Source: a virus
Lineage: Duplodnaviria; Caudoviricetes
Length of the DNA stretch: 61,619 bases
Reading direction: 5' to 3' (one strand)
Virus record (IMG/VR): IMGVR_UViG_3300007541_006356
Span: 1-61,619 of that record
The notes below the pieces were generated by a model. The model worked only from the letters and a program-made list of their open reading frames with translations, was not told the origin of the DNA and did not search any database. Both the position numbers and the translations under genes were made by a program. Positions 6,922 through 58,925 of this stretch are shown here, one piece after another. The first letter of the stretch is position 1; the number at the start of each line of letters is the position of its first letter.

Positions 6922-6924
6922 AAC

Positions 6925-31892: not shown

Positions 31893-31896
31893 ATTA

Positions 31897-32961: not shown

Positions 32962-32963
32962 AA

Positions 32964-33807: not shown

Positions 33808-33829
33808 GAATAATAAAATAGAATATTTA

Positions 33830-34567: not shown

Positions 34568-34611
34568 TATTATTTATTTGATGTTTATTAATTTAAAAAA
34601 AATTACAACAT

Positions 34612-35592: not shown

Positions 35593-36232
35593 CTTTACGT
35601 TTTAATAAAATTCCGTAATCCACAAATCTACCATCCTTAATCCTATCAAACTCTGGGAAAATTTCTGTTACCAGTGACTCGTAATCGTGTTCTCTAATAT
35701 TCTCTATTAAAAAAATGTATTTACTAGACAGTTTTTTCATGTTATATAAAAACTTCTTAGCTTTATCTAAAGATAGATGTATTGTTACAGCTTGAGTGTA
35801 TACAAATTCATATGTCCCCATAGATTCGAAATCACCATCTACCATGTCTTTTACAATAATTCTTTTAGCGAAGTCGTATTTATCTAATTCATAATACTTA
35901 TAACCTAAATCTATTTGTGATTTTGAATAATCACAACCGTTAATTTCGATATTAGGGTTTATTTTACTTATATTAATTAAATGGTGTACACAACCACACC
36001 CACATTCAAAAACACTGTTAACCCCTAATTTATGTACTTGGTGATAAATTTCCTTCCAATTATCGTGTAGGTTATCTTTGAATTCTATTATCCCATCTAC
36101 TTCATCGAAGTCATTAATAATCATATCATGATTATATTGTTTTTGTAAAATATTAATCATTTCTACTTCATAATGTTTTTGGGTATAAGTTTCCCAATTA
36201 AAGTCGTCTTTAGTTTTCATGTTTGTATTCAA
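35585..36232 (-). CDS. Class I SAM-dependent methyltransferase
   Basis: VFECGCGC (motif I), INGCDYS, YEFVYTQAVTIH. Confidence 0.75.
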   Translation of the reverse strand: MNTNMKTKDDFNWETYTQKHYEVEMINILQKQYNHDMIINDFDEVDGIIEFKDNLHDNWKEIYHQVHKLGVNSVFECGCGCVHHLINISKINPNIEINGCDYSKSQIDLGYKYYELDKYDFAKRIIVKDMVDGDFESMGTYEFVYTQAVTIHLSLDKAKKFLYNMKKLSSKYIFLIENIREHDYESLVTEIFPEFDRIKDGRFVDYGILLKRKDG

Positions 36233-38269: not shown

Positions 38270-38271
38270 AA

Positions 38272-39543
38272 TTAAAAAATTTTAAAATAGTCAAAATTTT
38301 CTTCGTCTTCAAAAAAATCTAAAACCTGTTTAACACACTGGTCTGTGTTGAAATATTGCCATTGTCCCCATCTCCCTAAACCATATAATTTATACTTTTT
38401 ACAGTAATCTAAAATATTACGTATTGCTTGTTTATACGTTTTGGTTGGTAACGGATATGAGTAAATGTTCTCATGTTCATATAATGGTGTCCCCGCTTTC
38501 CATTTTTTATCATTTTCTAACCATCTTTTTCTATTAATATCTGTCATAACCCCCCCCAGTTTACTATATGGTGCAAAGTTGCAAATGTAAAATTCACGGT
38601 GTTGTTCAACATCTAAGTTAGGGATATATTTCCAATGAGCTTTATGTGTGTAAGGTTCTCTTTCCCAAAGAGATATAACGTTACTCAAGTATTCTAAATT
38701 TTCAAACTCTTTTGGAAAATCAAAGTTGTTTAATTCTATGTTTAATTTTGTCCACGGGGATGTGTTAATAATTTTTTTAGTATAATATTCATCATTTATA
38801 CACCACACTTCATTTTCATTATCATAAGTTAATTTTTTCACATCTACGTTTGTTACAATATAATCGGTAACATTCTTTTTAATTGCGTCTAATATGGATT
38901 GGAACCCACCGTATTTAGGGTAAAAAAATGATTTATGACTTACTACTTGTTCGGTAAAATTAGAATTTCTTTCTATAATTGATTTTAAAACCAATTTAAT
39001 ATCTGTTTCAGGTATTTTCACCAACCAATCTGTATTTAATTTTGAAATATCCATGCACCATAATTTTTTATTATATGGTATCATGTAGTTATCCGCGATT
39101 TTATCCCCAAGATAATTTCTAATCCAAGATTCAAAATTTTCATACTTTATGTCCTTACTTGCTGCCGTTAAATAAGAATATAAGTATTCAACTTGTAAAT
39201 CATTAGGTAGTTGCCATAAATTTAATTCTATTGGGAATTCTACTTCATTACCTTCTAAATCGATTATTACTTTTGTGTCATACTTATTAAAATCTTCTTT
39301 AGGGATGTGGTCAAATATCCATTCTAACACTTCAGGATATTTTGAGTGTAGAACATGTCCACCCCCAATATCTAAATAATGTCCGTCTATATTTACCGTT
39401 CTACAAAGACCACCTATTTCTTTTTCGGACTCCAATATTAAAAAGTTTTCATTACCTTTTTGTTGTAATCTTCTACCTGCGGATACTCCGGTGAAACCGC
39501 CTCCAATTATTATATAATCAAATATATTTTGTGATTTTTTCAT
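38272..39543 (-). CDS. FAD-dependent oxidoreductase, UDP-galactopyranose-mutase-like
   Basis: IIGGGFTG, ESEKEIGGLC, DIGGGH, PYNKKLW, FFYPKYGG, GRWGQWQYFNTD. ATG at 39543 preferred. Confidence 0.75.
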   Translation of the reverse strand: MKKSQNIFDYIIIGGGFTGVSAGRRLQQKGNENFLILESEKEIGGLCRTVNIDGHYLDIGGGHVLHSKYPEVLEWIFDHIPKEDFNKYDTKVIIDLEGNEVEFPIELNLWQLPNDLQVEYLYSYLTAASKDIKYENFESWIRNYLGDKIADNYMIPYNKKLWCMDISKLNTDWLVKIPETDIKLVLKSIIERNSNFTEQVVSHKSFFYPKYGGFQSILDAIKKNVTDYIVTNVDVKKLTYDNENEVWCINDEYYTKKIINTSPWTKLNIELNNFDFPKEFENLEYLSNVISLWEREPYTHKAHWKYIPNLDVEQHREFYICNFAPYSKLGGVMTDINRKRWLENDKKWKAGTPLYEHENIYSYPLPTKTYKQAIRNILDYCKKYKLYGLGRWGQWQYFNTDQCVKQVLDFFEDEENFDYFKIF

Positions 39544-40375
39544 AAATTTCTTCAGTTGTTGGTATGTGTTTAATAAAATCAAATTTTACTTTTGAAAAGT
39601 TAATACAATCCGCATAAAAAGATGGATCTCCTCCGTGTTTTTCCATAAGTTTTGTGTTATCGATTATTGTAATATTAATATTATTATGACCAAAAATCAA
39701 GCAAGGATAAACACCTCCGGTCATAGTACTCATAACATTTTTACAGTTTGTATTTCTAACTATTGAACACCAATCTCTATAGTTTTTTATAAATGTTATA
39801 TTTTCACCGTCACACCATTTTTCAGTTTCTTTACCGAACACAAAAGTTTTTATATTGTTTTCATTTAATTTATTTATTAAATCGTACCAAAATTCGTCAG
39901 TCATATTTTTTTCCGTCCAAGCGGCTCTTTTCCTTATTACTAAACATATAAAAGGTGAGTTTAAATCATATTCTCTCAAATCACTCCAATCTACATCAGT
40001 AATTAAATTTTTATCTCTTTCCCAATTTTGATAGAATGGTACATAAGGAATTAATCTTTTCTCTTTAGGCCCACTAGCCATTTGTAAAAATAAACCATTA
40101 TCTAATAAATCAATTGATTCTATATTACCATGATTTAAAATTTGATATTCTTGGTAACTAATCACGTTATCAAATATTTTAGTATAAAGACATTTTCTTT
40201 CTTCAATAGTTACCACACAATCTGATTTATTTATTTTACCTTCTTGTAATAACATAATTAGGTAAAGTCTAGTTATTACTAACTCAGTTGCAATTTCGGT
40301 CACACTTAAAGGGTCGTGTGCGTCACTTGTGGAATCTCCTTTGTATTTATCTTTTGCGACTATAATATATTTCAT
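39518..40375 (-). CDS. Hypothetical protein in the glycan cluster (possible divergent GT-B)
   Basis: 285-aa ORF coupled to both neighbours; only weak GT-like pattern. Confidence 0.6.
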   Translation of the reverse strand: MKYIIVAKDKYKGDSTSDAHDPLSVTEIATELVITRLYLIMLLQEGKINKSDCVVTIEERKCLYTKIFDNVISYQEYQILNHGNIESIDLLDNGLFLQMASGPKEKRLIPYVPFYQNWERDKNLITDVDWSDLREYDLNSPFICLVIRKRAAWTEKNMTDEFWYDLINKLNENNIKTFVFGKETEKWCDGENITFIKNYRDWCSIVRNTNCKNVMSTMTGGVYPCLIFGHNNINITIIDNTKLMEKHGGDPSFYADCINFSKVKFDFIKHIPTTEEIYEKITKYI

Positions 40376-41952
40376 TTATTTTTAAATATTTTATTTTTTA
40401 TGACTAAAAAGTCTAATTCAGTATTTTCTAAAACGTAAAATGCATCTTCATATCTAGTTAAGATTGGTAACCCTTTTATATTAAATGAAGTATTCAAAAT
40501 TATAGGGATGTGGCCCAATTCATCAAGTTTATTCAAAATTTCGTTAAATAAATTGTGGGTTTTACTCGTGGTTGTTTGTAGTCTCGTTGTGTTATCTTCA
40601 TGTACAATTGATTTAACCCTATCCGTATATTCAGATTTAATCATCGGAGCATAACTCATGTAGTTAGATTCTTTAGGGTTTTCAAAATATTTTTCAATAT
40701 CTTGTAATCTACAAACAGGCGCAAATGGTCTAAACCATTCTCTAAATTTAACTTTAGCGTTTAATATATCTTTCATGTTAGGAAAAGATGGGTCACAAAT
40801 GATACTACGATTACCCAGAGCTCTTGGACCAACTTCTGAATGACCATTAACTAAACCTAATATTTTTCCTTGTTTTAAATACTGAACAATTTTATCAACC
40901 GTCAAATCTTCATTTGGGTATTCGGATAAAAATTTATCATACAATTCCGCATCAAGTATTTCAATTCCACTGTAACATATTTCTTGAGTTCCTAAATTTG
41001 GGAACATCGTTAAAAACATACCATAAGACAAACCACAATCATTAGGGTTTGACGGTACATATAATTCTAAATTTAATTTTTTTAAATACTCGTGAAGTTT
41101 TTGATTATATAAAACGTTTAAAGCACAACCACCAACTAAAACAACATTAGTTTTATATTCATTAACAAATGGAATAACTAACTCATTCATTTTACGTTCA
41201 AAAACGTATTGTGAAGTTGTGGATACGTCAAAAGAATCTTGGCCCGATAAAACATTTTTTTCACATTTAATACCTAAAGATGAACATAAACTTTCTAAAT
41301 TTTTGTTAACATAATAGCTTTCAAAATGCTCAATCCATTCATTTCTAACTTTCCCATAAGCACAAAGACCCATTACTTTCCCAGCGTTAGTTAAAGAGTG
41401 TTCGGTTTTATGTTCAGGACTAATTTCCGAAATTAACCAACCAATCGCAGAATATGGATTACCAAAATCATAATTTTGACAATTTAATTCATTAATTTTA
41501 TCACCTTCCCCTAAATAAGCTCTTGTAGTATAAACTAAGTTAAAGTCCCAACCACCACCATCAACGGAAAAAATTAAAGATTTTTTAAATTTTGAAGTAT
41601 AATATCCTGAAGCTGCATGAGAAAAGTGATGTTTCATTAATACAAATTCAGCGTTAGGAAAAAAACTTTTTATTAAGTTTTTATCATCATCATTAAGTTC
41701 TAAATATAAAATTAATTTTATGTTAGTGTTATTTAAATTGTTTTTTATATGTGTTAGGAATTGAATTCTTTCATTTTGATTTGAACCCATTAAATCCCAC
41801 CCGTCAAATCTTGAAGAAAACATTGCATATCTTTTTTTTACAAATCTTTCATATTCGTAAACTCTTATAGTATTATTTTTATCTATGAATGTTATTGATG
41901 CATCGTGTGATCCATAAATTGAAATGACTTCGTTTGGGTTATAATTTTGCAT
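40372..41952 (-). CDS. Carbamoyltransferase (NodU/CmcH/TobZ family)
   Basis: GSHDAS, ERFVKKR, HHFSHA, DGGG, GKVMGLCAYG, GGCALNV, PNDCGLSYG, EVGPRALGNRS, KFREWFRPFAP, LNTSFNIKG. Confidence 0.93.
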   Translation of the reverse strand: MQNYNPNEVISIYGSHDASITFIDKNNTIRVYEYERFVKKRYAMFSSRFDGWDLMGSNQNERIQFLTHIKNNLNNTNIKLILYLELNDDDKNLIKSFFPNAEFVLMKHHFSHAASGYYTSKFKKSLIFSVDGGGWDFNLVYTTRAYLGEGDKINELNCQNYDFGNPYSAIGWLISEISPEHKTEHSLTNAGKVMGLCAYGKVRNEWIEHFESYYVNKNLESLCSSLGIKCEKNVLSGQDSFDVSTTSQYVFERKMNELVIPFVNEYKTNVVLVGGCALNVLYNQKLHEYLKKLNLELYVPSNPNDCGLSYGMFLTMFPNLGTQEICYSGIEILDAELYDKFLSEYPNEDLTVDKIVQYLKQGKILGLVNGHSEVGPRALGNRSIICDPSFPNMKDILNAKVKFREWFRPFAPVCRLQDIEKYFENPKESNYMSYAPMIKSEYTDRVKSIVHEDNTTRLQTTTSKTHNLFNEILNKLDELGHIPIILNTSFNIKGLPILTRYEDAFYVLENTELDFLVIKNKIFKNK

Positions 41953-42011
41953 TTGTTATATTTTTTTTTGGTGTATAAAAATTAATAAAATAAAAAATGA
42001 AGATTAAGTTT

Positions 42012-42785
42012 TTATAATACAATCCATTTTTCACAATAAATGTCGTCAGTTACAAATCCGTTTTTTGACGGACCAAACCATTTTTTTGGTGCAATTACTA
42101 TTTTGTTTTTATTTTTATTTAAGCATGACCCCCACCAAGAAAAAGAAGAGTTTGCAATAATATTATTTCTACATAAAGACATTAAATACAAATCTTCATA
42201 ATCTTCATTACCCTCAACAAAAACTACATTTTTTAAATGTTTGAAATTTTCCTTGCACCATTCAATATCGTCAGAAAATATGAAAAAAGTTTTATCTTTA
42301 CCAATGTATGAAACAGCCTTATCGTAATAATTCATATCTTGTGTTGGGTGATGTTCTAATAATTTTAGATAATCACCTCGCCTAACATGTATAGCACAAG
42401 TTTCTGTTTTTAAATTATCCCCATATCGTTCCTTTAGACCACATATAGTCTTATCATCGATAAAGAATTCTAATATCTTATCTTTATTGTTTTTAAAATA
42501 TTTTTCGGATTGGAAATACCCGTGTAAAATCGTGTCCGACATAAAGTTGGGTATTGGTGAATAATGAAAATATGGTTCATAATAAATTTGATTTATGACC
42601 ATATCTTCATTAAGTGATACGTTTTTTAATATGTTTTTGGTGTAATTTGAAAGGGGATTATGGACAATTTGTATATTATTTGGGTTAACAACAAAATCAA
42701 CTCCCAAATCTAAAGATTTTGAGTACGCGGCCGCAATTTGAAATAAATAATTACCTAAACCACCTTGTAAATAACAACTAATCAT
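42012..42785 (-). CDS. Alpha-1,2-fucosyltransferase-like (GT11)
   Basis: GGLGNYLFQ, GYFQSEKYF, IHVRRGDY, FSDDIEWC, IIANSSFSWWG, VIAPKKWF. Confidence 0.92.
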   Translation of the reverse strand: MISCYLQGGLGNYLFQIAAAYSKSLDLGVDFVVNPNNIQIVHNPLSNYTKNILKNVSLNEDMVINQIYYEPYFHYSPIPNFMSDTILHGYFQSEKYFKNNKDKILEFFIDDKTICGLKERYGDNLKTETCAIHVRRGDYLKLLEHHPTQDMNYYDKAVSYIGKDKTFFIFSDDIEWCKENFKHLKNVVFVEGNEDYEDLYLMSLCRNNIIANSSFSWWGSCLNKNKNKIVIAPKKWFGPSKNGFVTDDIYCEKWIVL

Positions 42786-42790
42786 TCTAA

Positions 42791-43603
42791 TTATAGTGTT
42801 TTAGTGAATTGATAAACAAATTCATCGGGTAATAAATAATTTTTAGCTAAATTAAAATTACTTTTAATGTGACTTAATTTTGAATTATACATTTCTTCAT
42901 TACAACCATCCAATATTTTTTCCAAATCTTCTAAATTGTCAAAAATCAACATACCATCAGTGTTAAAAAAATCACCTATGGATGGACATCCCCAATAAAT
43001 TGGGATTGTACCAGTCATAAAACAGTCAATTAATTTTTCAGTAAACCAATAATCTCTTTTACAATTTTCAATAACAACAGAAAACCTATATTCTTTTAAA
43101 CCTTCTAATTTAAATTCAATAGGTGAATATCCTCTCCCAAAAACATCCATTTTGTTCCCAAATTTTTGAATAACTTTGTGTCTTAATTTATGACCATCAG
43201 TAAATGATTTACTTGATGATATTGTTGAGACATTTTTACTTTTTTCGTAAATTTTTTGGTTATCTTCAGGTATCCAACAACATCCAAACGGGACAAACTT
43301 TGTATTAAACCCCTTATCTAATAAAGTTTTTTCATGGGTCAATATATAGTCAAATTTCATTAAATTGTTTTTAATGTAATCATAGTGGTGAGGTGCAACA
43401 CACACTGGTTCAATTAACCATGCAATTTTATTTTTACTTGGTGGTAAATTTGATGTTAAAAAATTATCTGTGACAACTAAATTATCGTTATAACTAACAT
43501 TTAACCTATCCCATATAAAGGTCTCTGATTTTTGGAAATCAGAACAATATCCTAATACTGAATGTGAAAACGTATTGTCGATTATTTTTAATTTATCTTT
43601 CAT
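42791..43603 (-). CDS. Alpha-1,3-fucosyltransferase-like (GT10-like)
   Basis: YRFSVVIEN...YWFTEKLIDCF..GTIPIYWG matches the GT10 donor-binding motif. Confidence 0.8.
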   Translation of the reverse strand: MKDKLKIIDNTFSHSVLGYCSDFQKSETFIWDRLNVSYNDNLVVTDNFLTSNLPPSKNKIAWLIEPVCVAPHHYDYIKNNLMKFDYILTHEKTLLDKGFNTKFVPFGCCWIPEDNQKIYEKSKNVSTISSSKSFTDGHKLRHKVIQKFGNKMDVFGRGYSPIEFKLEGLKEYRFSVVIENCKRDYWFTEKLIDCFMTGTIPIYWGCPSIGDFFNTDGMLIFDNLEDLEKILDGCNEEMYNSKLSHIKSNFNLAKNYLLPDEFVYQFTKTL

Positions 43604-44319
43604 TTTATTAATTTCTCATATGGTTTATATGCCCGTATAATGTGATTCATTCTTTGAACTTCGTGTATATTTACTTTGTGTTCATTAAGAGGGTTACTTT
43701 CGTTATATATGTAATTTATATCATACATAAATTTATAATGTTCGGGACCACACATTTCAACCATAGGGAACATGAATGCCAAATCACAAGCAATTTTCCA
43801 ATTGTTACCCTCACTATCTTTTAAGTCTTCTGGTTTTATATTCCTCCATAAAAATACCTTCCAAGTTCTAAGGTGGGATAGTGTAAAAGGTTTCTGTCTA
43901 ATACCCTCAAATGTTGTGTGGGGTTGTGAAAAACCAGGTCTCCCATCGTGGTACCTAAAACTACCATTTGCTAACCAAACATCACCACTATTGTACGTGT
44001 CAACAACTCTTTGGAAAACGTTTGAGTCGGGCAACCAATCATCACCATCAACTTCGACACAGATATCTTCATCATCAATGTCAAATTCACCCCTAATTAC
44101 TTGGTCATAATTTCCTGATTGGTACATTTTAGATTTGTTTTCAATTAAAATAAACCTATCGTCATCTTTAATAATTTTTTTTATTTTACTAATTGTGTTG
44201 TCAGTGGACATGTCATCGGTTATGTAACATTTGAAATTTTTATAGGTTTGAGTCATAATACTGTTTAAACATTTTTCAATATAAGACTCACAATTGTAAG
44301 TTGTTGTTAATACTACCAT
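43600..44319 (-). CDS. Glycosyltransferase family 2
   Basis: TTTYNCESYIEKCLNSIMTQ, DDMSTD, VDGDDWL. Confidence 0.88.
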   Translation of the reverse strand: MVVLTTTYNCESYIEKCLNSIMTQTYKNFKCYITDDMSTDNTISKIKKIIKDDDRFILIENKSKMYQSGNYDQVIRGEFDIDDEDICVEVDGDDWLPDSNVFQRVVDTYNSGDVWLANGSFRYHDGRPGFSQPHTTFEGIRQKPFTLSHLRTWKVFLWRNIKPEDLKDSEGNNWKIACDLAFMFPMVEMCGPEHYKFMYDINYIYNESNPLNEHKVNIHEVQRMNHIIRAYKPYEKLIK

Positions 44320-44322
44320 TTT

Positions 44323-45975
44323 TTAAATTGTTTTAAAAATTACCTCAATTATCTCACACATAATGTTATTAGATTTAAATTTTCCAATATCATTCGGTGG
44401 TTCATTATAACTCACATCAATTATTTCACCACTATTATCCACGTTATATATCCAACCTGGTTTACCACATAACCACCCTTCTATTGTTGTTCTACCCAAC
44501 AATATCCCAGCGGTTTCATGACATTCTTTAATGTATTCTTCAACTTTCCATGTTGGTGGGAAATATCTAACATGTGAATTATTTAACTGGGGTATATCGA
44601 TTCTTTTCTTGCCGACAACCCATAATTCTTTATTGTCATTTTTAGTTTTTTCCACCAAATCAATAATACTTTTTTCACGTAAATAGTCAATTGTTCCAAC
44701 AAATAACACTCTTTTTTTATCACTTTTAGGTTGTGGATAATTTTTAAATCTATCGGTATCAAAAGGGTTATAAATTACAGATGTTTTTTCTTTAGGAATA
44801 TTGAATCTATCTACAATATATTCTTGAATTTCAGGTCTAATACAAATGTAATGTGATATCCTATCAGAAATTACAGGTTCCTCCAACTCTATAACTTCAG
44901 AGTGAATCGTACATATCGACGGTATATTAGGGTATAGATTTAGAAAATACTCAGTTACTGGTTTGTGATTTAAGTGTAAAATATCAAATTTAACATCTGA
45001 AACACGATATAATTGTCCTTGAGGTATTCTAACTGGACCATTAGGTGAATTTACCATTATATTACCATCACTTCGTTTAAAACCTGGTGGTTCGTCAAAA
45101 CTAAATGTTTCAATACCCAATGATTTAACTTTTTTAACCATCTCACCACCAATATTTGAACATATTGTGACGTTGTGACCTAATTTCTTATATCCTCTAG
45201 CTAATTCATAAACGTACAATTCAGAACCAGTATAATCATTGAAATTCAAACAACCAATAAGTATGTTTAGACTATCAGAATCATCAATCACCCTATTAAT
45301 TTTAATAGGTAAATGTTCTTTATATTTTTCAGCAAAAATTTTTCTATTTTCCTCCCATTGTTCGTTTGTTTGACCTATAGATAAGTGAGTTAGTTTGATG
45401 TCAGTACACACGGATACTTTCACATCTTTTAAGTAATTTCTTAAACAAAAATCAACCTCATAAAAATGAAATCCTTTTACATTTTCATCAAAATATTCTT
45501 TTATGTTGTTTTTATTTATCGTGAAAAATAAACCATCAACAAGAATAACATTATCTAATTTAGATCCTTTGTCTTTGGAATATCTACTTAACCAACGTTT
45601 ACCTTCGTGTTCGTGGTAAACCGCTCCATGCATTTTACCAAAATCTTCCCACCACTTTCCACTATCCGACAAATAACGTGTCCCAGCTACACCCAAAATA
45701 CCTAAATCACTGTTTCGTTTAAAATGGCCGAGTAATTTTTTACCCCAATTTTTTGTATCAAATTTTAAGTCATCGTGACAAAATAAAACAATATCGTTAG
45801 ACGAAGATTCTAAACCTTCATTATATATCTCAGTTAAAGATTTACCGTTTGGGTTTTCAAAGGGAATAATTTCAATGTGGTGTAAACCAGAAGTCTCCCT
45901 AATAATTTCAATATAGTTAGGATCTAACTTTCTAGTTGAGAAAATTACTGTTAGATTATTTTCCATATTTTTCAA
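44323..45975 (-). CDS. Bifunctional glycosyltransferase (GT-A plus GT-B fusion)
   Basis: N-terminal SLTEIYNEG..LFCHDD..DGLF..FHFYEVD; C-terminal TGSELYVYELA, LFVGTID, GRTTIEGWLCGKP. Confidence 0.8.
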   Translation of the reverse strand: MKNMENNLTVIFSTRKLDPNYIEIIRETSGLHHIEIIPFENPNGKSLTEIYNEGLESSSNDIVLFCHDDLKFDTKNWGKKLLGHFKRNSDLGILGVAGTRYLSDSGKWWEDFGKMHGAVYHEHEGKRWLSRYSKDKGSKLDNVILVDGLFFTINKNNIKEYFDENVKGFHFYEVDFCLRNYLKDVKVSVCTDIKLTHLSIGQTNEQWEENRKIFAEKYKEHLPIKINRVIDDSDSLNILIGCLNFNDYTGSELYVYELARGYKKLGHNVTICSNIGGEMVKKVKSLGIETFSFDEPPGFKRSDGNIMVNSPNGPVRIPQGQLYRVSDVKFDILHLNHKPVTEYFLNLYPNIPSICTIHSEVIELEEPVISDRISHYICIRPEIQEYIVDRFNIPKEKTSVIYNPFDTDRFKNYPQPKSDKKRVLFVGTIDYLREKSIIDLVEKTKNDNKELWVVGKKRIDIPQLNNSHVRYFPPTWKVEEYIKECHETAGILLGRTTIEGWLCGKPGWIYNVDNSGEIIDVSYNEPPNDIGKFKSNNIMCEIIEVIFKTI

Positions 45976-46930
45976 TGTAATGTTGTATTGTTGTTTTTAA
46001 ATTTTCTTTAAAGTTTTTACTTGGTGACCACATTAGTTCTTTTGTTAATTTATCATGATTTACTGAATACCTAAAATCATGACCTGGTCTATCAGTCACG
46101 AAGTCTTTAAGATTACATGAGTTTTCGTTCCCAGTTATCTCATCAAAAATTTCACAAATCAAATCAATGATTTCCAAGTTTTCCAATTCATTATCACCAC
46201 CTATATTGTATTTTTGTCGTGGTTTACCATATCTAAAAACCTTATCTATAGCGTCACAATGGTCTAAAACGTACAACCAATCTCTAATGTTGGTACCTTC
46301 ACCGTAAACTGGTATGGGTTTACGTTTAACTAAATTACGTACCACAGTTGGGATTAATTTTTCGTCGTGTTGATTTGGTCCAAAATTGTTTGAACAATTT
46401 GTTATCACATAGTTTAACCCGTAAGTGTTACCATAAGATTCAACAAAATGATCTGAAGACGCTTTTGACGCGGAGTATGGTGATCTTGGTTTATATAACG
46501 ATTCCTCAGTTGAGGAACTCTCATAAGGTGTTAATGATCCGTAAACCTCATCTGTAGATACGTGATGGAATCTTTTTACATTATGTTTTATAACTAAATT
46601 TAATAAATTAACCGTACCCATCACATTGGTTTCTAAAAACAGGTTGGGATTATCGATGGAATTGTCAACGTGTGACTCAGCGGCTAAATGAATGATACCA
46701 TCTAAATTATCTAAATTTAGTAACCCATCTAATCTATCAAGGTATCTTATGTCTTGTATAACATTAGTTAGATTTGGGTGATGTAAATAACCACCCAAAT
46801 TACAAATTTTACCAGCGTAAGTTAATGAGTCCATATTAATTATCTTCAATGTGGGATATTTGTCCAACATATATTTAATTAAGTTAGAACCGATGAACCC
46901 AAAACCACCAGTTACTAAAATTCTTTCCAT
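45956..46930 (-). CDS. rfbB: dTDP-glucose 4,6-dehydratase
   Basis: LVTGGFGFIGSN, LTYAG, HLAAESHVD, HVSTDEVYG, SPYSASKA, NCSNNFGP, RDWLYVLDH, DRPGHDFRY. Confidence 0.96.
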   Translation of the reverse strand: MERILVTGGFGFIGSNLIKYMLDKYPTLKIINMDSLTYAGKICNLGGYLHHPNLTNVIQDIRYLDRLDGLLNLDNLDGIIHLAAESHVDNSIDNPNLFLETNVMGTVNLLNLVIKHNVKRFHHVSTDEVYGSLTPYESSSTEESLYKPRSPYSASKASSDHFVESYGNTYGLNYVITNCSNNFGPNQHDEKLIPTVVRNLVKRKPIPVYGEGTNIRDWLYVLDHCDAIDKVFRYGKPRQKYNIGGDNELENLEIIDLICEIFDEITGNENSCNLKDFVTDRPGHDFRYSVNHDKLTKELMWSPSKNFKENLKTTIQHYIEKYGK

Positions 46931-46933
46931 GAT

Positions 46934-47545
46934 TTAATTTTTACCAGTCGAACCAAAACCACCCTCACCACGTGAGGTATCATTTAATTTATCAGTTTTT
47001 TTGAAATTAATCCATTTAGGTTTTAACACATAAGACACGACACCTTGTGCTACTCTATCACCCCGTTTAATTGTGTAAACCTCATTTGAGAGATTAACTA
47101 AAATAACTTTTACTTCACCCCTGTAGTTAGAATCAACAGTACCAGGTGTGTTTAATACCGTAATACCGTGTTTTGCCGCTAAACCACTTCGGGGTCTAAC
47201 TTGTAATTCGTATTCTGGGTGGATTTGGAAATATAAACCTGTGGGGACTAAAACCCTCTCCAATGGTTTAAGTTGAATGTCGTCACTTATATTAGCTCTT
47301 AAATCAAATCCAGAATCTTCTTCGTGGTTATAAATAGGATCATCTAAATCGGATAAGTTTATGAATTTTATTTCAATTTTTTGAACCATTGAATTAAAGT
47401 TTTCTTCCGATGTTTTTTCAAGTTTATCTAAGTCTAAACCCATAGACTTTACAACCCCACTTACATTATTGTCTAACTTATTAGACATCATTTTTTGGAT
47501 TTCTTTAATAGTGTTTTCCATACCACCTATAAAATTATTCTCCAT
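46934..47545 (-). CDS. dut: Trimeric dUTPase with N-terminal extension
   Basis: SGFDL, QVRPRSGLA, NTPGTVDSNYRGE, GDRVAQ, RGEGGFGSTG. Confidence 0.95.
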   Translation of the reverse strand: MENNFIGGMENTIKEIQKMMSNKLDNNVSGVVKSMGLDLDKLEKTSEENFNSMVQKIEIKFINLSDLDDPIYNHEEDSGFDLRANISDDIQLKPLERVLVPTGLYFQIHPEYELQVRPRSGLAAKHGITVLNTPGTVDSNYRGEVKVILVNLSNEVYTIKRGDRVAQGVVSYVLKPKWINFKKTDKLNDTSRGEGGFGSTGKN

Positions 47546-52544: not shown

Positions 52545-54764
52545 ATGGGAACACAAAATTTAAACAATTATTATTTTAATCGATTGGACGTTAAGTTAAA
52601 TTACAGTTCTTATTATGATTTTTTTTTATCTTCGGATGAAAAAGATTTTAATAGAGAAGTTGTATATTCAAATAATTTAATAGGTTACGACAATGGTAAT
52701 GTTTTACCAGTACTTATAGACTTATCCCAAAGTGGTTGTTCAACACAACCAACAATATCCTGTGACGTACAAAGTGGTACACCACAAGTAATATTGAGTA
52801 AAAATTATTGGTCAGAATCTACATCCACATGTGATTGTCCATATACAGGCACATCATCAAATAATTCAGCATACACAATTTACAACATAAATTTAACTGG
52901 AATTGATAATGGTTTGTTTACTGGAATGACTTCGGGTGAAACTATAGAATTACACAGTACTATACCTATAGGTGATACTTTTTCACCAACAAAATACGAC
53001 AAAAGATTAAAGTTACATCAAGTTACCGCTTCAACATATAGTCCAAACAATATATCGTATTCTATTAGTTCAACAACTGATAGTTCTGGTTATTACCAAG
53101 AATTGAACGGTGGTTTTTATCAAGGTTTTTATAAACTTTATGGTTACCCTTATGAAATTTTACCCGATAGACCAACTTGTGGGTGGACAATGGAAACGTT
53201 GTTGAAGATACGTACAAGTGGTAATACGTCTGGTAATTGTTTTACAACCCTCGAAAACAATTGTGAATCTACACAAACACTGAATGACGTGTACCCAAAC
53301 AACTCTGGATTTTTTTATTATGTGGGTACGAGAGCTGAAAATAAGTTTTGGGCAGCTTTTAGTTCAGAAACAGGTTGTACAAGTTTTAGTGGTTATTGTT
53401 CGGAAACTGGTAATTCGGGTGACAGTTGTACGATAAATGTCAGTAGTGGTGTTACTGGTTATTCTAACACATACGAGTTAGATTGTTGTAACAACCCAAT
53501 CGAATCACACCCTTTAGGTCCTGTTAGTTTAAATATTAACACCGGTACAACACCTTGTGGTCAATCATATTCACCATTTACGTTACCAGTATCAGCTATA
53601 ACTGACACGTACTCTAATTCTTTTGGTGTTAGGTTAACACCCGACTTTAGGTTAGGGTATAGAACTTTAAGGTTTACTGGTTCTTGTGTAACCACTGGTA
53701 CTTCAATTGATTGTAATACTGGTGGAACATTTAACTGTGGTTACGCTATCGAAGAATATTATACCGATGTTATTTGTCCGTCTATAATCAACTCTGGTAC
53801 CTGTGAAAATACTTGGTTATCCGTGTCGGTGACATTTGAAAGGGATTTCTGTTTAAGTGGATGTAACGTACAAAACGAAGGTGGGTTGTATGATTTATTG
53901 AAAGTTCCCACAGTGTACAGATACCAAAGATACGCTTCTGATGATATCGTGAGGTGTAAAAACACATACCCATTAATACCAGAAGATGGTTATTATGATT
54001 TAGAGTGCAGTGGTTCTTCCAATGGTAACATATCTATGACTTCAAACACCACCTACGGTAAATGGTTAAATCAAAAATACCTAAGACAAGGTACATTAAC
54101 ATTCTACGTAAATGGTAGGCGTGTAGGTAAAGTGGAAAACTTTGAGGAAATTATTCCCAGACCTCTAAATACTCACAGAGATTTACAGGTGGGTGTACCT
54201 TACAACATTTCTTGGGGTGGTGGTTCTCAAGGGTTATATGAAAATATGACATATGGTACTAGTGGTTGTTCCCAAAACCCACCTTACCAACAAGATCCAA
54301 ATGATTTGGGTTTATTAATACAAGAAAATTTTGCGGGTTCTTGGTTGGGTGGTATATCCCAATTTAGATATTATATAAAACCATTACAATCGGATGAAAT
54401 TTACCACAATTTTTTAGTGAACAAAGATAGGTACTCGTTAATTGACTGTCAATTCACTAAAAACTGTACATCTAAAGGTTGTAATTCACCACAAACATTA
54501 TACTTAAGAGATGGTGATTCCTTGGATATTAAAATTATTTTTGGAACCAATTCGGATAACGTATACACAAATACTAATGGTAATAATGTGAGGATAAAAT
54601 CGATACAACAAGATAACGTCTCTTCTGTAACCATAAAGAAAAATGATAATGTGGTTAACACACCGTTTAATGTGTATAGTGATGACACGTTAGAGGTAAT
54701 TATTACTAAGATGGATAGTGATTTAAATTCTAATGTAACTTTAATTAGTAATTTAATTAAGTAG
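52545..54764 (+). CDS. Cys/Ser/Thr-rich virion protein with a LamG/concanavalin-like core
   Basis: GWTMETLLK, WLSVSVTF, GTLTFYVNG, FAGSWLGGISQFRYYIKPL..DEI..N are LamG-like strands interrupted by Cys-rich inserts. Confidence 0.65.
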   Translation: MGTQNLNNYYFNRLDVKLNYSSYYDFFLSSDEKDFNREVVYSNNLIGYDNGNVLPVLIDLSQSGCSTQPTISCDVQSGTPQVILSKNYWSESTSTCDCPYTGTSSNNSAYTIYNINLTGIDNGLFTGMTSGETIELHSTIPIGDTFSPTKYDKRLKLHQVTASTYSPNNISYSISSTTDSSGYYQELNGGFYQGFYKLYGYPYEILPDRPTCGWTMETLLKIRTSGNTSGNCFTTLENNCESTQTLNDVYPNNSGFFYYVGTRAENKFWAAFSSETGCTSFSGYCSETGNSGDSCTINVSSGVTGYSNTYELDCCNNPIESHPLGPVSLNINTGTTPCGQSYSPFTLPVSAITDTYSNSFGVRLTPDFRLGYRTLRFTGSCVTTGTSIDCNTGGTFNCGYAIEEYYTDVICPSIINSGTCENTWLSVSVTFERDFCLSGCNVQNEGGLYDLLKVPTVYRYQRYASDDIVRCKNTYPLIPEDGYYDLECSGSSNGNISMTSNTTYGKWLNQKYLRQGTLTFYVNGRRVGKVENFEEIIPRPLNTHRDLQVGVPYNISWGGGSQGLYENMTYGTSGCSQNPPYQQDPNDLGLLIQENFAGSWLGGISQFRYYIKPLQSDEIYHNFLVNKDRYSLIDCQFTKNCTSKGCNSPQTLYLRDGDSLDIKIIFGTNSDNVYTNTNGNNVRIKSIQQDNVSSVTIKKNDNVVNTPFNVYSDDTLEVIITKMDSDLNSNVTLISNLIK

Positions 54765-54808
54765 TTTATCTACTTTGGAAATAATTATATAGTAAACACA
54801 AATAAATT

Positions 54809-55165
54809 ATGCCGTCATTCATTCGACTTTTAACAGAAACACCAACAAATATTAATACACCACCATCTGGTTATACTTCATTATACGCTTCGAGTGGAAC
54901 AAGTAATGAAAATCAGTATCAATTATACATTAAAGACCCGTATGGTAATTCTTACCAAGTAGGTGGTTTCGCTAGTGGTGGTACGTTTTCCGCTATGACA
55001 ACATTTAATTCGGGAGCTACTTTTTACAATGGTGTTTATTTGGGTCAACCAGCTAGTGAAGGTACATGGAGAATATCCGCTGACACCACAAATAATAATT
55101 TAGTATTCCAACTATTTACCGGTGGAACTTACGTAACTAAAAATACCATTAGTGGGGTATCGTAA
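54809..55165 (+). CDS. Small Gly/Thr/Ser-rich protein, probably structural
   Basis: 118-aa ORF; TPPSGYTSLYA and GTWRI segments typical of fibre-associated proteins. Confidence 0.65.
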   Translation: MPSFIRLLTETPTNINTPPSGYTSLYASSGTSNENQYQLYIKDPYGNSYQVGGFASGGTFSAMTTFNSGATFYNGVYLGQPASEGTWRISADTTNNNLVFQLFTGGTYVTKNTISGVS

Positions 55166-55170
55166 AAGAT

Positions 55171-55560
55171 ATGGAGTTTTTTATTAGAAAAAATTCATTA
55201 GAACCAATACTTAAAATGCAGTTGGTTCAAGACGGTAGAAATGATTTTAGTTCGTTCTATGACAAATTATCTAATTCTTCCATAAAATTCTCTATGCGTA
55301 ATGAAGAAACTGGTGTTTTTAAAATTTTAAATCAACCCGGTGGTATCGTACAAAAAACAAAAACAAGTGATAATTCACCCACAGAATACTACATCTACTA
55401 TAGATGGAGGAAAAAAGACGTTAACACAGTTGGCAGGTATCAGGGCATGTTTTCTATTTACTTATTTGATGATTGTACTGAGTTAAAGGTTCCAATTAGG
55501 GAGGATTTGTATATTAATATTACTGATTCATTCGGTCAAACTTCTTGTGATTGTGGGTAA
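55171..55560 (+). CDS. BppU-N-like Ig-fold structural protein
   Basis: FFIRKNSLEPILKMQL...IKFSM...IYYRW...DVNTVGRYQGMFSI...VP pattern. Confidence 0.55.
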   Translation: MEFFIRKNSLEPILKMQLVQDGRNDFSSFYDKLSNSSIKFSMRNEETGVFKILNQPGGIVQKTKTSDNSPTEYYIYYRWRKKDVNTVGRYQGMFSIYLFDDCTELKVPIREDLYINITDSFGQTSCDCG

Positions 55561-55561
55561 C

Positions 55562-55969
55562 ATGAAATCATTAATCGAGAAAATATTAAAAGAAGAGGTT
55601 CATGATCTTTTAAAGAAGCATTTATTTAAATTATTAAATGAATGGTTATTGGATGAATGTGATCAAATTACATCTGAAAAATACCCAGATTACATATTTT
55701 TTAAAAGAAGAAGTGATGGAAAAATTGTTGCGGAGATGGATAAAAAATATAAAGATTTTTGGTTACATTATGATGAAATTTGGTCATTTTTTGAAAAGCA
55801 TTTTGACCTAAATTATGAGGAAATACAGGAGATTGCTCGTGACTGGCTGGAAGAGGATTTCAAACTGAAGGGGTATACACCAGCCCCTGACTACGGATCA
55901 GGAGGTTTTAGGTTGGAAGAGACTTTCAAACTGAGGGGATATACACCCCACCTGTGGTGGAAACATTGA
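55562..55969 (+). CDS. Small aromatic-rich hypothetical protein whose C-terminus is encoded by the mini-array
   Basis: ATG at 55562, 1 nt after the previous stop; 135 aa ending WLEEDFKLKGYTP-APDYGSGGFR-LEETFKLRGYTP-HLWWKH*. Confidence 0.8.
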   Translation: MKSLIEKILKEEVHDLLKKHLFKLLNEWLLDECDQITSEKYPDYIFFKRRSDGKIVAEMDKKYKDFWLHYDEIWSFFEKHFDLNYEEIQEIARDWLEEDFKLKGYTPAPDYGSGGFRLEETFKLRGYTPHLWWKH

Positions 55970-56043
55970 CGCATTGTGCTGGAAGATGCTTTCAAACTGA
56001 GGGGATATACGTCAGGGACTATCGGTCAACAAATTTGGTTCAC
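55846..56043 (-). CRISPR. Cas-less CRISPR-like mini-array: 3 x 36-nt repeats, 30-nt spacers, type VI-B-like on the minus strand
   Basis: Plus strand: R1 55846-55881 GCTGGAAGAGGATTTCAAACTGAAGGGGTATACACC; S1 55882-55911 AGCCCCTGACTACGGATCAGGAGGTTTTAG; R2 55912-55947 GTTGGAAGAGACTTTCAAACTGAGGGGATATACACC; S2 55948-55977 CCACCTGTGGTGGAAACATTGACGCATTGT; R3 55978-56013 GCTGGAAGATGCTTTCAAACTGAGGGGATATACGTC; putative S3 56014-56043 AGGGACTATCGGTCAACAAATTTGGTTCAC. Exact 66-nt period; R1 and R3 each differ from R2 at 5 of 36 positions; spacers unrelated to each other. Confidence 0.8.
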
Positions 56044-56129
56044 CACTAAGTGATACTTTAAATATAAAATCCCAAGCTTAATTGATTTTTTAGTTCATTT
56101 GTATTATTTTTTTATAAAAAAATTGACAA

Positions 56130-58925
56130 ATGAATATACCGACACAAGAGCAAATAGAACAGTTTTTACACGGTTCTGACCCAGAAAAATACATAGTGGG
56201 GTTAGAATTCGGTTTTAGAAGTGGCAAAATATATAAAATCAAAGAATACCCAGATAAGGGAAAGGTTATTGAGGTTGATACCTTCACACCTTTTTGTTGG
56301 GTGGGTGATTTACGTTCTAAAAATTTTTACAGAGGAAACAAACAAGTTCAAAAAGAAGCTATCAGTAAACACGGTATCATTATAGAAAAGTTGGAAACTT
56401 ATGGTAATGATCGTTTAGAGAATGGGTTAACATATTTGGTTAAGACGACTAAAGATTATAATCATTTGGTTTCGTTTTTTAGGGAAGGCGGTCTTAATCC
56501 TTGGGGTGAAGATTCTAGAGATTTTATATTAATGTTACCACCGATAGAACAGTACTTAATACAAAAAGAAAAAAGATTATTCAAGGGTTTTGAGGATTAT
56601 AATGACGTACATCGTTTCGTTTTTGACTTGGAAACCACTAGTTTATCACCTAAAGATGGTAGGATATTCATGATTGGCATGAAAGACAATCGTGGGTTTG
56701 AAAAAGTCATTGAAGTTGAGGATAATGATTATAATGAAATATTAGCTATTACCGAATTTTTCGAAACAATAGATAAACTAAAACCGACAATAATTGGTGG
56801 TTACAACTCATCTAACTTCGACTGGGATTGGTTATTTGAACGTTCTCGTATTTTAGGTTTGGATATTTCGGAGTTTAAAACACTAAACCCTAACGAAAAA
56901 TTTAAAATGTCCAAAGGTACACTCAAGTTGGGTGCGGAAATGGAAGAATACAATAAAATTGAAATCTGGGGTTACAACTCTATAGATATCGCACACTCTG
57001 TTAGGAGAGCACAAACAATCAATTCAGACATAAAAAGTTGGGGTCTTAAATATATTACTAAATTCACTAATTCTGAAAAACCTAATCGTGTTTATGTTCA
57101 AGGGGATAAAATCGCTTCAACATATAAAGAAAATTTAGAATATTTTTTTAATCCCAAAACTGGTCAGTATCGTTTAGTTACAGATCCAAAAGTTAAAGAC
57201 ATAGAAACAAAATACCCAGGGGTGTATGAACGTGTCAACGGTAAATACATTGTTGAAAGATATCTATTGGATGATATTTGGGAAACTTTGGAGGTTGATG
57301 CTCAGTTTAACCAAGCGTCATTCCTTTTATCTTCTATGGTACCAACGTCATACGAGAGAGCGTCAACAATGGGTACCGCAACATTGTGGAAGATGTTGAT
57401 GTTAGCTTGGTCATACACTAACAATTTAGCTATACCCAAAAAAGACGAAAAAAGACCTTTTGTGGGTGGACTATCACGCTTGTTAAAAACGGGTTATTCG
57501 ACAAACGTGTTGAAGTTGGACTTTAGTTCACTTTACCCGTCAATACAATTAGTTCATGATGTTTTTCCAGAGTGTGATGTGACTGGTGCGATGAAATCTA
57601 TGTTAAAATATTTTAGAGACACACGTATTAAGTATAAAAATTTAACATCAGAATACAAAAACATAGATAAGAAAGTATCAGAAACTTATGGTAGGAAACA
57701 ACTACCTATTAAAATTTTTATTAACTCCATGTTCGGTTCACTATCCGCACCACAGGTATTTCCGTGGGGTGACATGAACAAAGGTGAAGAAGTTACATGT
57801 ACTGGTAGACAATATCTAAGACATATGATTAGATGGTTTATGGATAGGGGGTATGAACCTTTGGTGTTAGATACTGATGGTGTGAACTTTTCAGCTCCAA
57901 AGGGTGTAGAAAATATAGAATACGTTGGTAAAGGTAATAATGACTTAGTTGTTAAAGACAAGGTTTATGTAGGTACTGACGCACACGTAGCTGAATACAA
58001 TGATTTGTATATGGTAAATGAGATGGGTTTGGATACTGATGGTACTTGGCCAGCTTGTATTAATGTAGCCAGAAAAAACTACGCTCTTTTAACTGATAAA
58101 GGTAAAGTTAAACTAACTGGTAATTCAATCAAATCAAAAAAATTACAAGGATATGTAGAGGAATTTATAGATAAAGGTTTGACAATGTTACTTAACGGTG
58201 AGGGTCAGTCATTTATTGATTACTATTACGAGTACATCGAAAAAATTTACAATAAAGAAATACCATTAAGTAAAATCGCTAACAAATCAAACGTAAAACA
58301 AAGTGTTTCTGATTATAAGATTCGTAGTAAACAAACTTCAAAGTCTGGAAGTTTGATGTCTAAACAAGCTCACATGGAACTAATCATCCAAGAAGGACTT
58401 AAGGTGGATTTGGGTGACACGATTTACTATGTGAATAATGGTACCAGAAAATCACACGGTGACGTTCAAAACGTAAATAAACCAAAAAAGGGGTGGACAC
58501 AAGAACAACTTGATAGTTTCTTTGGGACTTATGGCGTTTACCCACCAGATTCATTAACAACTATGGTGAAACTAAATTGTTACCGTATCCCTAAAGAAGA
58601 TATTGAAAACAACCCTGGACTGACTGGTGACTATAACGTACCTAGATACATCAGTACTTTCAATAAAAGAATTGAACCTTTGTTGGTTTGTTTTAAACCT
58701 GAAATCAGAGACAATATTCTAATAGAAGATCCTAAAGACAGACAATATTTCACTAAATCACAATGTGAGTTAATAAATGGAATACCTAGAAAACCTGAAG
58801 ACCAAGATTCGTTAGGTGAAATATTAGACCTATCAGAAGATGAGGTTAACTTTTGGTCTAATGTAAAACAACAAAATGAAAATTATTTTATGGAAAGTTT
58901 AGGTATTTTTGATACCGTCAGATGA
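56130..58925 (+). CDS. polB: Family B DNA polymerase
   Basis: Exo FDLETT, GGYNSSNFDW, YLLDD; polymerase LDFSSLYPSI, KIFINSMFG, LDTDG, RKNYA. No intein evident. Confidence 0.95.
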   Translation: MNIPTQEQIEQFLHGSDPEKYIVGLEFGFRSGKIYKIKEYPDKGKVIEVDTFTPFCWVGDLRSKNFYRGNKQVQKEAISKHGIIIEKLETYGNDRLENGLTYLVKTTKDYNHLVSFFREGGLNPWGEDSRDFILMLPPIEQYLIQKEKRLFKGFEDYNDVHRFVFDLETTSLSPKDGRIFMIGMKDNRGFEKVIEVEDNDYNEILAITEFFETIDKLKPTIIGGYNSSNFDWDWLFERSRILGLDISEFKTLNPNEKFKMSKGTLKLGAEMEEYNKIEIWGYNSIDIAHSVRRAQTINSDIKSWGLKYITKFTNSEKPNRVYVQGDKIASTYKENLEYFFNPKTGQYRLVTDPKVKDIETKYPGVYERVNGKYIVERYLLDDIWETLEVDAQFNQASFLLSSMVPTSYERASTMGTATLWKMLMLAWSYTNNLAIPKKDEKRPFVGGLSRLLKTGYSTNVLKLDFSSLYPSIQLVHDVFPECDVTGAMKSMLKYFRDTRIKYKNLTSEYKNIDKKVSETYGRKQLPIKIFINSMFGSLSAPQVFPWGDMNKGEEVTCTGRQYLRHMIRWFMDRGYEPLVLDTDGVNFSAPKGVENIEYVGKGNNDLVVKDKVYVGTDAHVAEYNDLYMVNEMGLDTDGTWPACINVARKNYALLTDKGKVKLTGNSIKSKKLQGYVEEFIDKGLTMLLNGEGQSFIDYYYEYIEKIYNKEIPLSKIANKSNVKQSVSDYKIRSKQTSKSGSLMSKQAHMELIIQEGLKVDLGDTIYYVNNGTRKSHGDVQNVNKPKKGWTQEQLDSFFGTYGVYPPDSLTTMVKLNCYRIPKEDIENNPGLTGDYNVPRYISTFNKRIEPLLVCFKPEIRDNILIEDPKDRQYFTKSQCELINGIPRKPEDQDSLGEILDLSEDEVNFWSNVKQQNENYFMESLGIFDTVR

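Follow-up and report, generated by a model that had tools for sequence, protein, structure and literature searches.

The window analysed here is the whole of the IMG/VR virus record IMGVR_UViG_3300007541_006356 (61,619 bp), in which a small phage protein gene on the + strand (55562-55969) runs directly into a short array of 36-nucleotide (nt) repeats. The element is probably a genuine orphan CRISPR array belonging to a large T4-like phage and fused to this gene. The gene occupies the position of the leader, and the first repeat doubles as the protein's final twelve conserved codons. Spacers of 29-32 nt taken from other phages would insert at this first repeat and duplicate it, so that the residues following ...GYTP would be replaced at each acquisition. 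After insertion, the frame would run on to a stop, a 30-nt spacer contributing 22 more codons per unit and a 29-nt spacer causing a frameshift that ends at a stop built into the next repeat. Every spacer would be filtered for an open frame relative to the preceding repeat, from which it follows that the protein evidently needs translation past the first repeat and through the newest spacer. Phage-borne orphan arrays are already known; what appears to be new here is the gene in the role of leader and a first repeat whose codons are conserved in hundreds of sequence clusters. Literature searches on phage-borne arrays and Cas13b repeats turned up neither a gene-embedded first repeat nor a filtering of spacers at the level of translation.

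A repeat search of the window returned one repeat family, with three 36-nt copies starting at 55846, 55912 and 55978 at a spacing of 66 + 66 nt. The copies are pairwise identical at 31, 30 and 31 positions, and the two 30-nt spacers between them at only 9/30. The exact sequence of repeat 1 (R1) occurs once in the window, with no occurrence expected from 100 shuffles, and a 21-nt degenerate core was found three times in the forward direction, with none in reverse and none in a backward control. Guanine-cytosine (GC) content is 26% in the gene body, 44-47% in the repeats (47% in R1) and 50-53% in the spacers. The open reading frame (ORF) encodes 135 amino acids (aa) from the ATG at 55562, and its conserved domain occupies residues 1-107 (55562-55882); the ORF listing begins the same frame at a GTG at 55547, giving 140 aa.

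The leader-proximal R1 (55846-55881, +) encodes LEEDFKLKGYTP. It opens with the final base of an invariant Trp codon, continues with 33 nt that read LEEDFKLKGYT, and closes with two bases that begin a Pro codon. The last 28 aa of the 135-aa ORF are encoded by spacer 1 (55882-55911, +; 30 nt, 53% GC), repeat 2 (R2; 55912-55947, +) and part of spacer 2 (55948-55977, +; 30 nt, 50% GC). Spacer 1 is translated as (P)APDYGSGGF, R2 follows in frame as LEETFKLRGYT(P), or LEETFKLRGYTP, and spacer 2 holds the TGA (55967-55969) that ends the ORF, the C-terminus of which reads ...RDWLEEDFKLKGYTPAPDYGSGGFRLEETFKLRGYTPHLWWKH before the stop. The terminal repeat 3 (R3; 55978-56013, +) reads LEDAFKLRGYTS in the ORF frame and has a decayed 3′ end, with ACGTC for ACACC.

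Direct reading confirmed the original prediction in its placing of R1 within the ORF, of R2 and R3 in the same frame and of the TGA in spacer 2. The differences between repeats, several of them described there as synonymous or conservative, are as stated (CTG/TTG, GGG/GGA, ACA/ACG, K/R and E/D). A non-coding leader is absent, as had also been stated: the gene body (26% GC) abuts R1 (47% GC), and the place of an AT-rich non-coding leader is filled by a conserved coding frame that includes R1. A decayed repeat-like trace near 56045 is possible as a heavily decayed fourth repeat (56045-56080, +) and is not significant. The 36-mer at this position, which would complete a 67-nt unit, matches R1, R2 and R3 at 14, 14 and 16 of 36 positions, and when the other 36-mers of the window are compared with R2, 5.7% of them score 14 and 1.2% score 16 or better on the same scale. 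Metagenome DNA contigs at the window repeats are fragmentary and show alternative spacers between R1-like repeats, this locus and its paralogues not being separable there.

The arrays of this locus and its relatives behave as true CRISPR arrays and not as protein repeats. From 31 distinct arrays, each with 2-6 repeats (1-5 spacers), 69 unique spacers were collected, of which 21 are 29 nt long, 44 are 30 nt, two are 31 nt and two are 32 nt. Repeat length is constant, the spacers are unique and near-constant in length, and growth is polarised at the gene end, while the repeat that terminates the opposite end is decayed; the terminal repeats of the relatives have decayed 3′ ends, as does R3 in the window. 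Turnover at the gene end was observed in three pairs of loci. L084 carries three unique gene-proximal spacers and L083 one, the last two spacers being common to both. L078 and L085 share trailer spacers and differ in those at the gene end, and the single spacer of L066 recurs (29/30) further from the gene in L072. Shared trailer spacers together with differences at the gene end are the signature of insertion at the first repeat, which bears out the proposal that spacers integrate at R1.

The accompanying claim that each 66-nt unit adds 22 codons is true for the 30-nt spacers only (44/69). The other 25 spacers (36% of units) break the frame, the 29-nt class alone accounting for 30%. R2 is read in all three frames among the homologues (LEETFKLRGYTP, WKRLSN-stop and AGRGFQTEG), which reflects the varying spacer length. 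As 25 of the 69 spacers are frame-breaking, the repeats beyond R1 are not selected as codons, and the dual-coding claim is valid for R1 and its adjoining spacer, not for the whole array.

The module of gene and array is widespread. A profile search of 1.84 billion cluster representatives returned 696 proteins at E ≤ 1e-3, 56 of them at E ≤ 1e-10. DNA-level relatives of the window module comprise one viral and 14 metagenome loci; in 14 of these 15 the ORF ends in R1 and there are 3-4 repeats, counting R1, in units of 65 or 66 nt, and in the fifteenth (L018) the sequence ends upstream of the 3′ end of the gene. An IMG/VR scan with 12 distant family proteins gave 35 loci, and 21 of the 22 non-duplicate distant loci have at least two repeats when anchored on the invariant Trp codon. 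The association of gene and array, for which a one-off coincidence had been considered as an explanation, is therefore a recurrent one.

The module is kept in different repeat families, in proteins with as little as about 36% identity. Some of the distant repeat families start with GTTGGAAGAG and end with ACACC, others start with GGTGGAGGAAC and end with ACAACAAC, and others are of the GTTG...CAAC form. In every array, the downstream repeats equal the R1 of their own gene, and the repeat families co-vary with the C-terminus of the protein. Two gene-plus-array modules lie in tandem in L010, and L009 and L014 share one contig. The complete 309-kb relative G002 encodes eight paralogues, four with arrays of differing repeat variants and four without arrays. 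In distant members, a variant of the C-terminal motif particular to each protein recurs every 22 residues, with five copies of LEETDKLREYTP in P0035. In-frame copies of the 12-aa motif at this spacing were present in 24 of the 172 proteins examined, and certain long proteins arise by read-through of more than one module. The domain is found alone, in such tandem modules or fused to long N-terminal regions. At L016:532-3351 and G002:C1:303340-304761 it forms the C-terminal end of longer ORFs (939 and ~474 residues) of no known family, and the array still follows.

Some relatives show features of their own. In the viral contigs L092-L097, the only 'spacer' is conserved, its translation being an acidic tail (DEVDEEDDEL...), and after it comes one decayed repeat; this subfamily resembles a fossil array or proto-array that has become fixed as coding sequence. 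Near the modules of L008, L012 and L013 there are genes of the RNA-repair type, including an RNA ligase with a PHA02142 OB domain, a Thg1-like tRNA-His guanylyltransferase, a HAD domain of the 'Swiss Army Knife' RNA repair protein and a cyclic-phosphate receiver domain. A 26-nt identity to the 3′ part of R1 was also noted in an archaeal metagenome-assembled genome (L039/L063, G001:C36:7974-7999), where it reads DFKLKGYTP in the frame of R1. It was set aside as a single copy inside a GC-rich gene and is probably due to chance (roughly 1 in 100).

In the frame of the gene, the unique spacers show a strong depletion of stop codons. A stop in the ORF-equivalent frame is present in 10 of the 69, against 25 and 35 in the other forward frames and 27, 31 and 27 in the reverse frames. 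Mononucleotide shuffles gave a mean of 31.6 spacers with a stop (standard deviation 4.1), and none of 5000 shuffles gave 10 or fewer. No stop in the ORF frame occurs within the first three spacer codons. The 17 spacers that now lie beyond a stop or frameshift are also depleted (3 versus 6 and 12), a pattern to be expected had each spacer been filtered while it was the newest. An independent set points the same way: among 51 motif-carrying representatives from the profile search, 42 have tails of at least 9 aa, with ~54% expected (P = 2.5e-5), and none has a tail of fewer than four residues. The codon-position composition of the spacers is weakly periodic (P = 0.046). Capture in frame from coding sequence does not explain the depletion of stops, as the reading frame of the target in the one clean protospacer, on contig G007, differs from that of the array. 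Owing to this depletion in the ORF frame, the spacer-encoded tail appears to be translated and under selection, and the simplest explanation would be selection for translation through the newest spacer.

The dual coding of R1 itself, as first proposed, was upheld by homologues and by structure prediction. A word-indexed protein search recovered 26 close homologues among 41 candidates. In 25 of them the same frame passes through R1 (...ARDWLEETFKLRGYTP) with variable sequence after it; P0012 is frameshifted just upstream of R1. The conserved C-terminal motif, [LV]EE.[FY][KN]L.G[YV]T[PT], spans twelve codons and is preceded by the invariant Trp. The AlphaFold model of the window protein has a mean predicted local distance difference test score (pLDDT) of 77.5, and that of the relative P0031 (125 sequences) has a pLDDT of 93.6 and a predicted template modelling score (pTM) of 0.83. 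In both models, the R1 residues fall within the confident core and form the end of the last core helix, a short loop and a beta-strand, in blocks with a pLDDT of 83-97. In the P0031 model, the strand (residues 98-102) takes in the first three spacer-encoded residues.

A check proposed there, whether the terminal 36 nt are conserved at the DNA level more than the protein requires, gave a negative answer. In ten close gene copies, codon pairs within R1 differ in amino acid in 9% and synonymously in 18% of cases, against 16% and 4% in the rest of the gene. With synonymous variation at 18% versus 4%, the DNA of R1 has not been held fixed more tightly than its coding role demands. The codons of R1 are nevertheless atypical for the gene, with TTC, CTG and GGG against TTT and TTA elsewhere. 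This use of codons that the remainder of the gene avoids points to a second constraint on R1. The depth of metagenome contigs over the gene was 10-25x that of its flanks; together with the 16% versus 4% differences, this indicates a multi-copy, fast-diversifying gene family.

No Pfam, PHROG or PADLOC-relevant family was found for the window protein, nor a RuvC or other recognised nuclease family, and Pfam gave nothing over curated cut-offs for 19 distant family members. ESM Atlas offered no usable match, and TBLASTN of the protein against cultured phages gave none. Foldseek matches in the PDB are not significant, the best having E = 0.03 with the first model and E = 0.23 with the second (template modelling score ~0.3), and the ricin-like and Shiga-toxin-like matches were rejected as noise. 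A wide VIA-align search (best Z = 5.4 and 4.2) produced no nameable fold relative, the scattered winged-helix and homeodomain matches being below a meaningful level. In BFVD, the structural relatives (8 at E ≤ 0.001) are all uncharacterised proteins, encoded by uncultured phages of the Caudovirales.

The spacers of the window subfamily have a GC content of 44% versus 32% for the carrier phages; over all families the spacer value is 38.5%. A scan of IMG/VR for protospacers covered five spacers, and a foreign origin was found for two of these. The second spacer of array 2 in L010 matches at 29/30 positions inside a 278-aa ORF of the unrelated viral contig G007 (21 kb, 47.5% GC), in which a Shine-Dalgarno-like core precedes 0/22 ORFs. 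Spacer 1 of the window has a 23-nt exact core, and 26/30 identities overall, in the 80-kb phage contig G008. This match lies in the anticodon-arm region of a tRNA-Arg(ACG) gene, as called by ARAGORN, in tRNA-sense orientation. Spacer 1 also has weak BLAST matches to tRNA genes of cultured phages, and contigs of runs X9/X10 cover 55882-55918 with 1-4 differences, their loose ends reading as the remainder of a tRNA.

The tRNA-Arg match in these X9/X10 contigs extends 7 nt into R2 (GTTGGAA), such that the 3′ flank of the protospacer is the same as the start of the repeat. This could be due to chance, or to microhomology or a flank preference at acquisition. Spacer 2 of the window gave no significant match among cultured phages. 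The arrays of six relatives gave only AT-rich chance matches to cultured phages (E ≥ 0.006). A protospacer adjacent motif of the II-C type is not derivable from two protospacers.

No cas genes were found in the window by a Pfam scan of its ORFs, and a six-frame Pfam search for Cas1 and Cas2 gave nothing over the cut-off in G000 and G002-G005. PADLOC reported no Cas9 or Cas13 among 119 ORFs of at least 230 aa in G002, with seven ORFs dropped and a further 13 boundary-crossing and the smaller ORFs unscanned. The adaptation and effector proteins would probably be supplied by the host, likely from a Bacteroidota system of the II-C/VI-B type acting in trans. This lead is followed because of the geometry of 36-nt repeats and 30-nt spacers, the GTTG/CAAC ends of some families, the absence of cas1 and cas2, and the lack of Shine-Dalgarno sequences before the genes of carrier and target. 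A Shine-Dalgarno-like core precedes none of the 51 window ORFs of at least 150 aa, whose upstream regions are 50% A, and 8/209 ORFs of G002, which is the background level. Low use of the Shine-Dalgarno sequence is established in Bacteroidota. The array would be co-transcribed with the gene on the + strand, the borrowed system would combine II-C adaptation with a II-C or VI-B effector, and the guides would act against competing phages.

A number of results weigh against the reading of an orphan array that serves the phage. No RNA run contains the stretch. The five scanned spacers yielded one clean protospacer, one partial tRNA match, one match to its own array only and, for two, nothing. No spacer matches were present in 606 kb of carrier-type phage DNA, including the complete G002, and cultured phages gave no convincing spacer match, the window array showing only the weak tRNA matches. 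Both protospacers are in the sense of the target transcript, a misfit with RNA targeting by a + strand guide, in two cases only. Among 185,579 species-representative cellular genomes there was no array with the window repeat core, and the 43 single matches are close to chance by the estimate made here; the repeats may be phage-specific. When 401 Flavobacteriales genomes were sampled, only one had a 36/30 array of the GTTG..CAAC form, the repeat of which agrees with the phage family at just 19/36 positions. The 3′ end of the window repeat is CACC instead of CAAC, and a poly-U loop is missing. Finally, amino-acid differences among close paralogues (16%) are far above synonymous ones (4%), so the protein is not under simple purifying selection. 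These rough counts suggest diversifying or relaxed selection, or gene conversion, among the paralogues upstream of R1.

Three functional readings had been offered in the original prediction, and the best fit among them is that of a gene end which became an integration site for host Cas1-Cas2. Adaptation may instead have been co-opted for protein diversification, an idea aided by the depletion of stops, and there is no direct support for a protein that partners its own antisense guides. A functional coupling of CRISPR adaptation and protein coding may be entertained tentatively. It could take the form of a changing C-terminal peptide for a multi-copy family, or of protein production tied to the processing of mRNA into guides. 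In the latter form, a cut at the repeat would leave a stop-less message. In both, translation through the newest spacer would be an essential step and no side effect. It is unlikely that the arrays are a by-product, or 'neo-CRISPR', in which the gene 3′ end resembles a host repeat, host Cas1-Cas2 mis-integrates there, the phage gains nothing and selection removes damaging insertions. The absence of cas genes from the complete relative G002, its four paralogues with and four without arrays, the short arrays of 1-5 spacers and the ectopic integration that is said to occur with Cas1-Cas2 of E. coli are all in keeping with this account. Stop depletion, too, can be read as damage control; however, damage control does not predict it, since a stop in the spacer would merely shorten a tail of no evident role. 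Frame-breaking 29-nt spacers, moreover, are tolerated (30%), the module persists to ~36% protein identity with arrays at nearly all examined loci, and no host array with this repeat was found in the 185,579 genomes.

The arrays may not be orphan at all if a TnpB/Cas12f-like protein of the phage uses them as guides, in the manner of a miniature type V system, although this is judged quite improbable. G002 encodes a 443-aa TnpB/Cas12f-like ORF (G002:C1:291950-293790, L113; PADLOC Cas12f, E = 1.7e-31), and G003 and G004 carry this gene too. Some 200 nt beyond its 3′ end there is an array of its own, with 36-nt GTTG..CAAC repeats (four clear and one decayed) and spacers of 29-30 nt, the repeat resembling the ORF-linked repeats when aligned by eye; a GC-rich, structured-looking stretch lies between gene and array. 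In L008, a close relative of the window module, an IS605-type TnpB ORF of 410 aa (L008:3660-4892; HTH_OrfB, OrfB_IS605 and TNB) starts 140 nt past the ORF-linked array. The two TnpB proteins are, however, only 34% identical over 225 residues, and a TnpB gene lies beside the module in only 1/9 context loci of the window subfamily. No TNB-domain match was found in G005/G006 and no TnpB family among the window ORFs by Pfam, which is weak evidence, as contigs other than G002 are fragments. Neither an anti-repeat nor a trans-activating CRISPR RNA (tracrRNA) was found. The 2.4-kb unit of G002 is bracketed by similar direct repeats (GGGATTCC.TCGAACGAAGTGAG...) in the manner of a mobile insertion, and may be a mobile intermediate between TnpB and Cas12 carried on a phage. 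There is little probability that the repeats act as an RNA decoy, in which highly expressed mRNA repeats would titrate a Cas effector or processing enzyme of the host and the spacers would be incidental. Such a role would suit orphan arrays without cas genes, present in many copies per genome (eight paralogues in G002, and a gene depth of 10-25x the flanks), and repeat mimics termed Racrs are known from viral genomes (PMC10651486). Racrs are solitary, whereas these arrays show turnover and real protospacers, and there was no matching host array to mimic in the 185,579 genomes. Least credible, and very improbable indeed, is a protein origin without CRISPR, namely a 22-residue C-terminal tandem repeat with hypervariable linkers, like multi-core peptide precursors, of which the DNA periodicity would be a consequence. 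The in-frame 12-aa motif at 22-aa spacing in 24/172 proteins and the stop-depleted ORF frame of the spacers would be accounted for, but the 25/69 frame-breaking spacers, the stops within spacers, the reading of R2 in three frames and the end of the window ORF within spacer 2 would not. The same applies to the matches of spacers to foreign phage DNA, the terminal decay and the leader-end turnover.

The orphan array of a large phage, as preferred here, is carried by a fragment of a large T4-like myovirus. The window is assigned to such a phage because it encodes a T4-type terminase, portal, prohead protease and major capsid protein along with Hsp70, ClpB, PhoH, a family-B DNA polymerase and a large sugar-modification cluster, and because its CheckV completeness is 17%; its GC content is 32.5%. 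No tRNA genes were found in a search of the window, and BLASTN of the locus against cultured phages gave no match. A scan of 54700-56300 found promoter-like sites at the level of shuffles and no terminator, and an Rfam scan of 55000-56700 gave chance-level matches only, with no CRISPR-DR family. Membership in the bS21-encoding Bacteroidetes huge phages of PMC9723584 was rejected, there being no S21 match in G000, G002, G005 and G006.

Elsewhere in the window, a chaperone cluster (2834-7219) comprises a ClpB-like AAA+ protein (673 aa), a full-length Hsp70/DnaK (619 aa, E = 5e-258) and a KTSC-domain protein. The block of sugar-nucleotide and glycosyltransferase genes (31095-47545) includes a GDP-mannose dehydratase, epimerases, an aminotransferase, a carbamoyltransferase and glycosyltransferases of the GT2, GT4, GT10 and GT11 families; its content suggests that the host or virion surface, or DNA, is modified. 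Two in-frame tandem repeats lie within a 406-aa ORF, at 8845-8975 and 9233-9343. They have periods of 42 and 33 nt, with 3.1 and 3.4 copies and 91-97% matches, and encode acidic units of the GGDEE..DLDMD type.

If the proposed fusion of gene and array is correct, adaptation machinery can use a coding sequence as leader, with the repeats drifting along with the protein motif. Each event of immune memory would then edit a protein, a natural link between nucleic-acid memory and peptide. Selection on spacers at the level of translation would be a constraint on their content that has not been considered in CRISPR biology. The module, at ~450 bp, is abundant in freshwater and estuarine metagenomes and is present in several copies per genome, and would provide a tractable system for target recognition by integrases of the Bacteroidota II-C/VI-B type.

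One of the closest known systems is that of TnpB and IscB, in which the omega-RNA guide scaffold overlaps the 3′ end of its own ORF. In both cases, one stretch of DNA is the end of a coding frame and a guide-RNA element placed before a variable guide. Here, by contrast, a 107-aa domain without a RuvC or nuclease family is followed by an array filled by acquisition, and not by a single flank-derived guide. Ectopic integration at repeat-like sites has reportedly been seen for Cas1-Cas2 of E. coli. Such ectopic or 'neo-CRISPR' integration likewise uses a site other than the canonical leader-repeat junction; the site described here, in contrast, is conserved and reused across a large gene family, with the reading frame kept open.

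In repeat architecture, the arrays resemble those of VI-B (Cas13b) and Bacteroidota II-C systems, as described in 10.1101/092577 and PMC8092290, with 36-nt repeats, 29-31-nt spacers and a 66-nt unit. VI-B repeats are given in the former as 36 nt long with 30-nt spacers, complementary 5′-GUUG and CAAC-3′ ends and poly-U in an open loop, and the latter describes II-C/VI-B loci of F. columnare with adaptation in trans. Shared features are the GTTG...CAAC-type ends of some phage families, the absence of cas1 and cas2 of their own, with filling in trans possible, and phages with Bacteroidota-like translation signals. Complementary ends of the VI-B type are present, for example, in L093 (GTTG...CAAC) and partly in L082 and L087 (GGTG...CAAC), whereas the window repeats start with GCTG or GTTG and end with CACC. 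In place of a poly-U loop, the centre of the window repeat reads CUUUCAAACUG, and its folding is no better than that of shuffles (z = +0.4 to +1.6). The phage arrays also differ in that neither cas13b nor cas9 is in view, a gene serves as leader and both protospacers are sense to the target transcripts.

The Racrs are CRISPR-repeat mimics in viral genomes that occur as solitary units (PMC10651486). Both they and the present elements are phage CRISPR-repeat sequences without cas genes, the latter being distinguished by 2-6 repeats with spacers in 31/31 arrays, by turnover and by their embedding in a coding frame. The viral mini-arrays are also short phage arrays without adjoining adaptation or effector genes, and here, too, at least one spacer matches another virus. 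In a review (PMC11656645), mini-arrays are characterised by host-identical repeats and by spacers that mostly target relatives of the carrier. By analogy with these, the match of a spacer to a virus combined with borrowed Cas proteins suggests a possible role in inter-virus conflict. In contrast to the mini-arrays, no cellular array with the repeat was present in 185,579 representative genomes, where the host may be unsampled. Similarly, no spacer matches were found in 606 kb of related phages, the sole clean target being unrelated and of 47.5% versus 32% GC. The elements described here differ further from the mini-arrays in having up to five spacers and several modules per genome, and in a first repeat that lies within a coding gene and co-evolves with the protein.

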